From Ktedonosporobacter sp. (GTDB taxonomy: Bacteria > Chloroflexota > Ktedonobacteria > Ktedonobacterales > Ktedonobacteraceae), in the NCBI GenBank assembly GCA_035293765.1, contig DATGMF010000079.1, forward strand, positions 1 to 64,000: DNA of 64,000 nucleotides, given 5' to 3'. Of the stretch, positions 43,068-58,198 are shown piece by piece. A program made the position numbers and the translations under genes. The notes beneath the pieces were generated by a model, which saw only the letters and a list, made by a program, of their open reading frames with translations, searched no databases and was not told the DNA's origin. Position 1 is the first letter of the stretch, and each line of letters starts with the position of its first letter.

Positions 43068-46000
43068 GTGAACACTATTTTCGACTTTCGCAACCAGCTC
43101 ATTCACGACTATGCCTCCTACGTTCAGAGTTTTTTGCAGATCCGCGATCAATATATCCGCAAACATGTCCAGGGACAGATGGCCCGGGGCGCATTCTGGC
43201 CGGAGCCGTTGATTCAGCTCAATCCCCTTTTTGAGCCGGGCGAGTCTATTGATGATCTCGTCAAAGAAGGTGTGCTGCATCCTGAGTGCGCGCGGATCTT
43301 TCGCAAGGGGAAGTCGGAGATAGACGAGCAGGGAGCGCCGTTACGCCTGCATCAGCACCAGTCTGAGGCGGTGCGCGTGGCACACAGTGGAGCGAGCTAT
43401 GTCCTGACGACGGGCACGGGCTCGGGGAAAAGTCTCTCCTATATCATTCCCATTGTTGATCATGTGCTGCGCGCGGGTAGCAGGCGTGGCATCCAGGCTA
43501 TCGTGTGCTATCCGATGAACGCGCTGGCCAATAGCCAGTTGATCGAGCTGGAGAAGTTTTTACGCTGGGGGTACGCTCAGGGGAAAAGCCCCGTCACCTT
43601 CGCACGCTATACCGGCCAGGAGCGCGATGAGGTGCGCAACGCCATTATCGCGCAGCCGCCGGATATCCTGCTGACAAACTATGTGATGCTGGAGTTGATT
43701 CTAACGCGCGTGGCGGAGCAGAAGCTGCTGGCGAACGCGCACCTGCGTTTTCTGGTGCTGGACGAGCTGCATACCTATCGTGGTCGCCAGGGGGCCGACG
43801 TGGCGCTGCTGGTCAGGCGTGTGCGCAATCGGCTGGCGGGCGATGATTTGCAGTGCGTAGGCACCTCGGCCACGCTGTCGAGCAGCGAGAGCTATGCGGA
43901 ACGGCAGGCTGATGTGGCGCGGATGGCGACGCAGATCTTCGGGACGCCGATCGGCTCCGAGCATGTCATCGGCGAGACGCTGCGCCCGGTAACATCCTGG
44001 GGACAGGATGAGGAGACGTTTCGCGCCCAACTGACCGAACGTGTGCGCGACCGCGATTACCAGCCGCCGCGTGACTACGAGGAGTTTCTGCGCGATCCCC
44101 TGTCGATCTGGATTGAGCGCACCTTTGGCATCACCGAGAGCAACGGGCGCGTGGAGCGCACCACCCCCAGGAGCATCTCTGGCGAGCGCGGAGCCGCTCA
44201 TGAGCTGAGTGCGCTCACGGACGTTCCCCTGGAAACCTGCGTTGAGGCGATCCAGCGGGCGCTGCTGGCGGGCTACGAGTGCGAGCCTGTACCTGAGACG
44301 GGGCGCCCGCCCTTTGCCTTCCGCCTGCACCAGTTTATTACGCGCGGCGATACGCTCTATGCCTCGTTGGAGCCGCCCGCTGCCCGCTATCTGACCCTGA
44401 ACGGGCAGCGCTACGTGCCCGATGGGACGCGTGCGCGGGTGCTGCTGCCCCTGGTTTTCTGTCGCGAGTGCGGGCAGGAGTATTACTGCGTGCGCCTGCG
44501 AGACGGGCAACTGCTGCCCCGCCATCTCAATGACCATGATCAGGAGGAGAGCCAGGCCGGTTTTCTCTATTACAGCCAGGAAAATCCCTGGCCGGACGAC
44601 GATGAAAAGCAACTGGTGGAACGTTTGCCTGACGACTGGATTGAAGAGTTTAAATCTTCATATCGTGTGCGCAGAGATCGCAGAAAGTCGTTGCCGGGCG
44701 CCTTGCGGGTCTATCCCGATGGCAAGTTTGGCGAGGGCGGCCATGGGCCGAGCGTGCAGGGAGATGGGCTGCCGATGCACTTTGTCAGCGCGCCATTCCG
44801 TTTCTGCCTGCATTGCGGCGTGTCTTATAACACACGTCAGCGCCAGGATTTCGGGAAGCTGGCCGCGCTCAGTTCGGAGGGCCGCAGTACGGCGACAACG
44901 ATCCTGAGCCTGTCGGCTATTCGTCACTTGCGCGAGACGCCGCAGGATGATATCGCGGCCAAGCTACTCAGCTTTACGGATAACCGCCAGGATGCTTCGC
45001 TCCAGGCAGGGCACTTCAATGATTTTATTGAGATCGGTATCCTGCGTGCGGCGCTCTACCGGGCGGTGCGCGAGGCGGGCGCGGAGGGATTGCGCCACGA
45101 TGGCCTGACGATGAAGGTATTTGACGCGCTGGCCCTACCGTTTGAGCAGTATGCCAGCGATCCCGGCGTCAAGTATCAGGCGTTCACCGATACGCAGCAG
45201 GCGTTGCGCAATGTGCTGGGTTATCGCCTCTACTGCGATCTGCGGCGTGGCTGGCGCATCACTTCGCCGAATCTGGAGCAGACCGGCCTGCTGAACATCC
45301 GCTACCTCTCGCTGGAAGACGTCTGCCAGGATGAGGCGGTCTGGCAGGGCTGCCATGAGACGCTGCGTACGGCGAGCCCGCGTACGCGCGAGAAGATCGG
45401 CAAGGTGCTGCTCGATCATATGCGGCGCGAGCTGGCGATTGAGGTCGATTACCTGGACTCCGGCTATCAAGAGCGCCTCTGGCAGCAGAGCAATCAGCGC
45501 CTGGCAGCTCCCTGGGGCGTGGATGAGAACGAGGCGAAGGTCCACGCCGCGATCCTCTTCCCGCGTTCCGCCAACAATGGCGATTATGGCGGCAATGTCT
45601 ACCTCTCGGCGCGCGGCGGCTTCGGGCAATACCTGCGACGCAGGACCACCTTTACGGAATTTCAGGGCAAACTGACGCTGGAAGATACCGGGCAGATCAT
45701 CAGCAACCTGCTGGAGGGTTTGCAGGAGGCCGGGCTGGTCAAGCGGGTGCAGGAGCCGCCGAAAAAGGAGAAGGATGGCGTCGCGGGCTACCAGTTGCCG
45801 GCTGCCGCGCTGATCTGGTCGTTTGGGGATGGGACGCAGGTCTTTCACGATCCTATTCGCATGCCGCGTACCTCCAGCGAGGGGCAGCGTCCCAACCCGT
45901 TCTTCGTCGATTTTTACCGCGAGATGTCGGCTCGGCTCAATGATCTACGTGCCTATGAACATACGGCGCAGGTGCCCGGCGATCTGCGCCAGCAGCGCGA

Positions 46001-58198: not shown

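Follow-up and report, generated by a model that had tools for sequence, protein, structure and literature searches.

Four large genes lie head to tail between positions 43068 and 58198 of a 64,000-nucleotide (nt) stretch of Ktedonosporobacter sp. DNA (contig DATGMF010000079.1, positions 1 to 64,000; hereafter the window), encoding two DNA helicases, an adenine methyltransferase and a third helicase, and the question is which defence system they encode and whether all four belong to it. An initial annotation, made from the sequence alone, had read them as a single four-gene island akin to class-1 DISARM with a non-canonical architecture. Our analysis indicates that 43068-55468 is very probably a complete ARMADA Type I system in the order armC-armA-armB, acquired horizontally by a Ktedonosporobacter-like Chloroflexota host, and that gene 4 is a separate module resembling Mokosh type II without its phospholipase D (PLD) domain. 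ARMADA Type I loci are ordered YprA, BrxHII-like, PglX-like, and their helicase ends in a Vsr-type PD-(D/E)xK nuclease predicted to be active (Bell et al. 2025, bioRxiv 10.1101/2025.09.15.676423). An exact-sequence look-up in GenBank returned the gene 1 product as HLG64836.1 (metagenome-assembled genome, third-party annotation, "MAG TPA"; Ktedonosporobacter sp.), a protein entered as "ARMADA Type I helicase", Ktedonosporobacter sp., in Table S1 of that paper, which also includes the helicases from two loci of Ktedonobacteria bacterium brp13 and from Dictyobacter arantiisoli, the closest relatives (Bell et al. 2025). The helicases of two loci compared below, L001 (81% identity) and L021 (55% identity), are likewise in Table S1. 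Because gene content, gene order and the fused Vsr-type nuclease match the definition and HLG64836.1 stands in the authors' own list, we assign genes 1-3 to ARMADA Type I. The class was thus already published in 2025 and this locus is already catalogued, so no new class is described here, and the only mildly new item is the rare ARMADA-Mokosh linkage.

The proposed set of four large co-directional open reading frames (ORFs) on the forward strand was confirmed (43068-48266, 48167/48266-51235, 51470-55468 and 55559/55565-58198), with two starts corrected: gene 2 most likely begins at ATG 48266 and not at 48167, and gene 4 at ATG 55565 and not at 55559, giving 989 and 877 amino acids (aa), respectively, the lengths called on public contigs. 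The overlap TGATG between armC and armA also holds (stop TGA 48264-48266, ATG 48266-48268, one base in common), all domains named in the initial annotation are backed by Pfam for the four proteins, and all expected ATPase, zinc, nuclease and S-adenosylmethionine (SAM)/NPPW motifs of the three arm-type proteins are intact in the window, as judged from alignments of 58 armC, 81 armA and 41 armB homologues. The coordinates of these and the other features are collected in Table 1.

Table 1. Position, strand and supporting evidence of the features discussed in the text
Feature	Coordinates	Strand	Evidence
armC-type gene, YprA/DruE-like DExH helicase, 1732 aa	43068..48266	+	Pfam, motifs, identity to HLG64836.1
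armA-type gene, SNF2/RapA/BrxHII-like helicase, 989 aa	48266..51235	+	Pfam, PADLOC, motifs
~165-nt near-perfect hairpin in the armA-armB spacer, overlapping the armA stop codon	51228..51396	+	inverted repeat, RNA fold
armB-type gene, PglX/DrmMI-like gamma-class N6-adenine DNA methyltransferase, 1332 aa	51470..55468	+	Pfam, PADLOC, motifs
Low-GC hypervariable armB segment, aa ~811-1210	53900..55100	+	GC, homologue identity
Truncated Mokosh-type-II-like/CnuH-like Upf1-family SF1B helicase, 877 aa	55565..58198	+	Pfam, PADLOC, relatives' alignment
Sigma-70-like promoter candidate, TTGACA-18 nt-TACAAT	42905..42934	+	11/12 match, best in 42.3-60.6 kb
GC-rich 1262-bp IS-like element	58432..59693	.	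perfect 21-bp inverted repeats 58432-58452 / 59673-59693, unique in window

The gene 1 product combines helicase, zinc and nuclease parts in one chain, in which Pfam placed DEAD at aa 96-272, Helicase_C at 956-1030, MZB/DUF1998 at 1490-1585 (1.4e-10) and DUF559 at 1669-1713 (25.8 bits against a cut-off of 20.6; REase_MTES_1575 also matched weakly), with nothing useful in aa 1031-1490 at E <= 1. Among the 58 homologues the helicase motifs (GTGSGKS 115-121, DELH 232-235, QRSGRAGR 1022-1029) and the nuclease residues (PDF 1668-1670, YIDG 1681-1684 with D1683, and D1695) are conserved, and the DUF1998 cysteines C1557, C1577, C1581 and C1584 are 100% conserved. From these residues the Vsr-type nuclease is predicted to be catalytically active, and the Joint Genome Institute (JGI) name for the protein is 'YprA.../very-short-patch-repair endonuclease'. 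An insert of ~680 aa separates RecA1 from RecA2 (DEAD end 272, Helicase_C start 956) and holds two 100% conserved CxxC pairs (C465/C468 and C580/C583); two further conserved pairs (C1313/C1316 and C1332/C1335) lie in the oligonucleotide-binding (OB) region. For the ARMADA Type I helicase, BrxA-like, zinc beta-barrel and MarR-like domains have been described between RecA1 and RecA2, together with one OB-region zinc module, and the BrxA-like and MarR-like inserts are treated as shared derived features (Bell et al. 2025). The nearest PDB entries are two ~2000-aa helicases (9tu7, 9wae), followed by MrfA/YprA (6znp, 1.1e-24), with Lhr structures also among the matches and no chain named Drm among the 52 retrieved, while PADLOC (2023) scored DruE at 3.5e-98 and DrmA only at 1e-14. 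Both results agree with the statement of Bell et al. that ARMADA helicases are nearest to Druantia.

The gene 2 product (Pfam SNF2-rel_dom and Helicase_C) retains the motifs GIGKT 124-128 and DEAH 225-228 and a conserved motif VI among its 81 homologues. Its best PADLOC match is 'DpdE' PDLC02853 (1.8e-267 over the full length), followed by DrmD (3.7e-83), whereas the NCBIfam models scored far lower (DISARM_DrmD 331 bits against a cut-off of 610; DpdE 191 against 500); indeed, the curated NCBIfam models for DrmD, DpdE, DpdJ and BREX PglX all remain far under their cut-offs on genes 1-3. Membership in Dpd was rejected on the NCBIfam DpdE score and on flanks devoid of Dpd/preQ0 genes, and PDLC02853 apparently captures this SNF2 subfamily and not a Dpd setting.

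These results also weigh on the placement of the block as a non-canonical class-1 DISARM system, which we consider very improbable. Class-1 DISARM (DrmD, DrmMI, DrmA, DrmB, DrmC) does share with the window an SNF2 helicase, a large N6-adenine methyltransferase and a YprA-family helicase with DUF1998, the PADLOC DrmD and DrmMI models match genes 2 and 3, and ARMADA is DISARM-related by name and analysis. In the window, however, helicase and DUF1998 form one polypeptide instead of separate DrmA and DrmB, a fused Vsr-type nuclease replaces the separate PLD protein DrmC, and the genes stand in another order; no PLD (DrmC) was found in the window proteins or by tblastn anywhere in the window. Moreover, gene 1 is far better described by DruE than by DrmA, its best PDB relatives are the large helicases and MrfA, the DISARM_DrmD score is well below the cut-off, and the published YprA phylogeny assigns the very same protein to ARMADA Type I, on the Druantia side of the tree and outside the DISARM/Dpd clade (Bell et al. 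2025). The class-1 DISARM label is therefore superseded by ARMADA Type I, although the departures from DISARM that the initial annotation had listed (a DruE-like fusion of DrmA and DrmB, a fused PD-(D/E)xK nuclease, no DrmC, a different gene order) were all correct and are hallmarks of ARMADA Type I, and its broader claim of a horizontally acquired, DISARM-related defence block stands.

In the gene 3 product, Pfam detected Eco57I, N6_Mtase and MmeI_Mtase, and the motifs DPACGSGHFL 500-509 and GNPPW 776-780 are conserved among 41 homologues. The PADLOC DrmMI match (7.8e-65) covers aa 450-782 only, and the NCBIfam BREX PglX models stay under their cut-off. PADLOC REase_MTase_IIG models match at 1e-56, as would be expected if gene 3 were a nuclease-methyltransferase fusion of the Type IIG/Type ISP-like restriction-modification kind standing beside unrelated helicases. 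Against this, the best-matching model stretches fall only within the methyltransferase and C-terminal parts; Pfam (E <= 1) found nothing in the first 450 aa, a profile of 22 armB N-termini found only chance matches among PDB sequences, phmmer with full-length armB found no match in the PDB, and no lysine that could serve a PD-(D/E)xK site is invariant among the 22 homologues in this part. Lacking an invariant lysine and any Pfam or PDB relative, aa 1-450 give no sign of a Type IIG nuclease domain. We regard a Type IIG enzyme of this kind, or in its place an ordinary Lhr/YprA repair locus (see below), as extremely improbable.

Towards its 3' end armB contains a segment of different composition: over codons 811-1210 the G+C content (GC) falls to 0.48 versus 0.62 in the rest of the gene and is high again over the last ~120 codons. 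The same dip at the same codons is seen in L001, L090, L085 and L081 (0.42-0.48 versus 0.56-0.62 for the window and these four relatives). This is also the least conserved part of the protein, with a mean identity to 40 homologues of 42%, versus 57-61% elsewhere. By its variability and low GC aa 811-1210 is probably an exchangeable target-recognition domain, and the shared dip suggests that such domains are swapped from a common low-GC pool; the low-GC cassette within armB would thus mark the likely specificity determinant.

A genome scan with the SNF2 protein yielded 540 relatives, and 80 loci were fetched and compared. By tblastn, essentially all loci long enough to judge have genes 1-3 in the same order on one strand, at identities of 44-88%. 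The loci are spread over Chloroflexota, Cyanobacteria, Actinomycetota, Planctomycetota, Bacillota, Desulfobacterota, Acidobacteriota and others; relatives reside on 74 plasmids, including Deinococcus radiodurans R1 MP1, and none was found for the SNF2 protein in viral contigs. Comparison by tblastx detected no synteny between the window flanks and any related locus. Colinearity across phyla, flanks without synteny and carriage on plasmids indicate a horizontally mobile cassette and not core genome, the latter being an outcome that the initial annotation had named as fatal to its reading. The same observations bear on the Lhr/YprA repair locus: gene 1 does match YprA/MrfA and Lhr structures, but the strict three-gene colinearity across phyla, the patchy distribution, the plasmid carriage and the lack of flank synteny speak against a repair function, as does the presence in gene 1 of both DUF1998 and a fused nuclease, which sets it apart from a plain repair helicase. 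On the Deinococcus radiodurans R1 plasmid MP1 (L153, NC_000958.1 157173-169643) the same cassette is annotated generically as DEAD/DEAH helicase, 'helicase-related protein' and methyltransferase; there the methyltransferase is split into two coding sequences with an IS630-like ISDra3 at the end, IS4 elements are nearby and a McrB-family gene lies ~3 kb downstream.

Does gene 4 belong to the same system? Its product, identical to HLG64839.1 by exact-sequence look-up, carries Pfam AAA_11 and AAA_12 and matches the PADLOC models MkoA (2e-51) and MkoC (1.3e-27), with GajB only at 1.9e-5; a full-length relative matches Upf1/NAM7 structures at about 1e-23, and the family has a large coiled-coil insert after Walker A, as described for CnuH helicases. 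Mokosh type II is a single gene encoding an N-terminal Upf1-like (COG1112) helicase and a C-terminal PLD, in which mutations of the PLD active site abolish defence, and such single-gene systems protect alone (Millman et al.). The relatives of gene 4 (P0002-P0013, 49-81% identity) are 1078-1182 aa long, most of them 1146-1182 aa, and have an additional C-terminal PLDc_2 domain (motif MHEK...D) and a Cys-rich tail; other relatives carry TIR instead of PLD, one with a kinase at its N-terminus and the PLD in a gene of its own has the layout of Mokosh type I, and the helicase-PLD family as a whole is rare (57 proteins at E <= 1e-60). Homology of gene 4 to the full-length relatives stops at nt 58168 and the ORF ends ten codons on, and a sensitive tblastn search found no remnant of the PLD-coding part anywhere in the window, so this part was deleted and not merely split off by the insertion sequence (IS)-like element downstream. 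Comparison with the relatives indicates that gene 4 is a PLD-less remnant of a Mokosh-II-like gene and, lacking its effector domain, it is probably inactive as a nuclease-based defence. The initial annotation was therefore right that the window has no PLD gene, while it overlooked the PLD carried by the full-length relatives of gene 4. In motif Ia of the window copy T is replaced by N, and 13 aa are deleted in frame directly after Walker A. At least 24 metagenome contigs contain this truncated form in identical sequence, and the ratio of nonsynonymous to synonymous substitution rates (dN/dS) against the full-length relative in L081 is 0.20, similar to that of the C-terminal part of armB. This ratio speaks against a freely drifting pseudogene, and our claim is limited to the loss of the effector domain: that loss may be recent, or the protein may still act as a helicase alone.

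By tblastn, 79 of the 80 ARMADA loci lack gene 4, among them L001, which belongs to the same methyltransferase subclade as the loci that have it. Yet a full-length helicase-PLD gene lies directly 3' of the ARMADA methyltransferase in L081, L085, L086 and L090, at a gap of ~40-140 bp and on the same strand, the position that gene 4 has in the window. All linked loci fall into that one methyltransferase subclade, and for them the helicase-PLD tree agrees with that of the methyltransferase to identities as low as about 50-60%. This agreement implies that ARMADA and the helicase-PLD gene were co-inherited as a block over deep divergence, with losses and escapes. Other close helicase-PLD relatives come after Druantia type I genes or a pair of AAA_5 genes (L083, L087, L089) or stand alone among housekeeping genes (L082, L148, L151), and in every linked locus the GC of the helicase-PLD gene is lower than that of the ARMADA core.

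One explanation for the linkage is that the Upf1-like helicase-PLD is a true fourth subunit in this ARMADA Type I subclade, comparable to ArmD in Type II or DrmC in DISARM, and that the window holds a decaying form of an integrated four-gene system. The fixed position and strand of the gene and the long co-inheritance read from the trees favour it, and so does the recurrence of superfamily 1 (SF1) helicase-nuclease accessories in ARMADA: ArmD (UvrD plus RelE) is essential in Type II, and an ArmD-like gene with GajB/ParE domains occurs between armC and armA in six Type-I-ordered loci. Against it stand the absence of the gene from nearly all ARMADA Type I loci, the close relatives that live alone or beside Druantia type I, the consistently lower GC, the ability of single-gene Mokosh type II to defend unaided, and the confinement of all linked loci to one subclade, for which a single historical juxtaposition could suffice. 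We therefore hold an integrated four-gene system to be unlikely, and with it the idea, for now doubtful, that a Ktedonobacteria-associated ARMADA Type I subclade recruited a Mokosh II/CnuH-type helicase-PLD as a working fourth component, convergent with ArmD and DrmC. If this idea were true, ARMADA cores would act as platforms, taking on exchangeable effector modules (SF1 helicases or ATPases) time and again, with the module of the window in decay; the ArmD-like genes between armC and armA and the LmuB-like ATPases 3' of armB, both described below, would suit such a picture. A stable neighbouring system, possibly synergistic, fits the pattern better than an obligate fourth subunit, and the proposal that the four genes form one conserved system was not borne out, given the absence in 79 loci, the differing GC and the PLD-less state of gene 4. 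A search of the text of Bell et al. 2025 found no mention of Upf1, SF1 or Mokosh.

Further arrangements of the linked genes were seen. In the metagenome locus L086 (5514-9913), the first ~161 YprA residues are followed directly by the methyltransferase and then by the full-length helicase-PLD, the remainder of armC and the whole of armA apparently having been deleted. Assembly GCA_037025425.1 (contigs L081 and L143) contains both a truncated gene 4 identical to that of the window and an 81%-identical full-length helicase-PLD beside an 88%-identical, frameshifted methyltransferase, implying that the sample holds two related strains or two paralogous loci. Other neighbours recur as well. Six Type-I-ordered loci (L004 7920-9984, L008, L033, L036, L060, L067) encode a conserved ~700-aa GajB-like UvrD helicase between armC and armA, with a weak N-terminal ParE/RelE-toxin domain (E 0.0045) in that of L004, a protein that is ArmD-like in kind and unlike Type II in position. 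Seven ARMADA-I loci (L013 17406-19445, L022, L029, L039, L042, L072, L078) encode a ~680-aa coiled-coil ATPase ~0.5 kb 3' of armB on the same strand (PADLOC LmuB 8.5e-13, weak DUF2326), a recurrent candidate accessory. The Mokosh-like helicase-PLD, the ArmD-like UvrD helicase and the LmuB-like ATPase are thus candidate accessory or synergistic modules of YprA-based defence, and such recurrent modules around ARMADA cores are the modest lead that remains from this locus.

The surroundings of the block were in part described correctly by the initial annotation. Gene 1 is indeed preceded by an AT-rich spacer (GC 0.38 at 42.5-43.1 kb) with a near-consensus promoter candidate, a pattern match. The jump in GC is real (0.62 over genes 1-3 versus 0.54 in the rest of the window), but the block is a mosaic, in which the variable segment of armB falls to 0.48 and gene 4 has a host-like 0.54. 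The degraded IS element proposed downstream is bounded by inverted repeats, has a GC of 0.60-0.66 and contains a 260-aa ORF (58673-59455, minus strand) with a weak IS1380 transposase match (E 1.6e-4, 20 bits against a cut-off of 180), whereas no Pfam transposase, or indeed any Pfam match at E <= 1, was found in this ORF; it is probably a decayed IS. Since the element starts 264 bp past the point where gene 4 homology ends, it could be connected with the loss of the PLD-coding end. The armA-armB hairpin is built of 46-nt arms that are 83% complementary, with a perfectly paired core of 21 nt (-85.8 kcal/mol, z = -6.0), is unique in the window and is not found in the same spacer of L001 or L090; the last ~26 residues of the window ArmA are not conserved among relatives. 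No Rfam family was detected over the whole window, and the hairpin may be an insertion resembling a miniature inverted-repeat transposable element, or a regulatory or terminator structure.

Among the flanking genes are CcbP, a DNA-alkylation repair gene, TPR, BTAD and DUF1702, and the window has no transfer RNA genes and hence no visible tRNA integration site. An ORF with a ParE/RelE-like toxin domain (~42310-42609, minus strand; Pfam ParE_toxin, E 2.9e-4) lies on the far side of the AT-rich spacer from armC and diverges from it, with no obvious antitoxin ORF seen; the long ORF call around it (41617-42642) overlaps a convergent DNA-alkylation-repair gene. That this ORF is a remnant of an ArmD-like RelE-UvrD gene was rejected, as the two have no similarity. 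Farther upstream (36861-40036), a 186-aa ORF (BTAD and the start of an AAA_16 ATPase), a 164-aa ORF, a DUF6036 nucleotidyltransferase ORF and a 443-aa TPR ORF follow in a row and look like a fragmented SARP/STAND-type regulator gene. On the other side, past a 22-bp tandem repeat (2.4 copies, 59917-59969), the interval 60498-64000 encodes a small ORF of the Frankia_peptide family, a BTAD/SARP regulator and DUF1702, followed by a large polyketide synthase on the public contig; with these secondary-metabolite-like genes the defence block abuts a biosynthetic cluster.

From the family relationships of the proteins, ArmB would methylate a host DNA motif read by its hypervariable low-GC segment and, as in BREX and DISARM, would also take part in the restriction machinery or in self/non-self discrimination. 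ArmA would act as an ATP-driven translocase or remodeller of double-stranded DNA, and ArmC as the effector, a 3'-5' helicase of the YprA type with zinc modules that tracks on single-stranded DNA like MrfA and SftH and whose fused Vsr-type nuclease would cut unmodified invading DNA, which would make the defence direct and non-abortive. Gene 4 would be the 5' three-quarters of a Mokosh-type-II-like helicase-PLD gene that travelled with this ARMADA subclade and has lost its PLD effector here.

Several points temper the assignment to ARMADA Type I with a separate gene 4. Placement in the Type I clade draws on the authors' table and sequence identity, the literature searched contained no experiment on any ARMADA Type I system, and Type II, DISARM and MrfA are the models from which Type I activity and mechanism are extrapolated. 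Pfam at E <= 1 detected nothing in the gene 1 insert (aa 280-950), where the BrxA-like and MarR-like domains would lie, the 165-nt hairpin could affect armB expression, and the intact 877-aa frame of gene 4 with its low dN/dS may reflect a helicase-only role. The intact high-GC cassette of the window, or its four-gene relatives, would be reasonable test cases for Type I. Tools dated 2023 (PADLOC 2.0) label parts of the block DruE, DpdE/DrmD and DrmMI and would probably lead to a confusing, partial assignment to Druantia, Dpd or DISARM; dedicated ARMADA models are needed for this reason. Conversely, a reading of the raw sequence re-derived an architecture published in 2025 as ARMADA Type I, indicating that such a scan detects real defence systems.

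How, then, does the locus compare with known systems? With Mokosh type II, gene 4 shares the Upf1-like SF1B helicase, and its full-length relatives share the C-terminal PLD (HxK motif), whereas the window copy is PLD-less and bears the 13-aa RecA1 deletion; the MkoC match is partial even in the full-length relatives (profile positions 777-1120 of 1136). With Druantia, the common element is gene 1, whose best profile and PDB matches are of the DruE type, and an architecture of domains inserted between RecA1 and RecA2 is found in both ARMADA and Druantia helicases; the nuclease types differ, being a predicted active Vsr in ARMADA Type I, PLD in Druantia III and inactive Vsr in Druantia I/II (Bell et al. 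2025). Despite the match to the DruE model, membership in Druantia types I-III was rejected, as neighbours and flanks gave no match to DruA-D, DruM/F/G or DruH and the partners of gene 1 are an SNF2 helicase and a methyltransferase. With class-1 DISARM, the window probably has methylation-based self/non-self discrimination in common. ARMADA Type II (armABCD of E. coli NCTC 12900, EDL933 and ATCC 8739) has homologous SNF2, methyltransferase and YprA-Vsr proteins and a fourth gene of the SF1 helicase-nuclease type after the core. However, its order is strictly SNF2, methyltransferase, YprA, ArmD, as opposed to YprA, SNF2, methyltransferase in the window, and gene 4 differs from ArmD in being Upf1-like SF1B with PLD-bearing relatives and only a weak GajB match. 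Type II is the sole ARMADA type with experimental proof, giving direct, non-abortive protection that needs the helicase ATPase motifs and the methyltransferase NPPW. With ARMADA Type I, finally, the core of the window agrees in genes, order, C-terminal Vsr-type nuclease and the CxxC pairs of the putative zinc modules, and what the window adds is the hairpin between armA and armB and a truncated Mokosh-like gene directly downstream.

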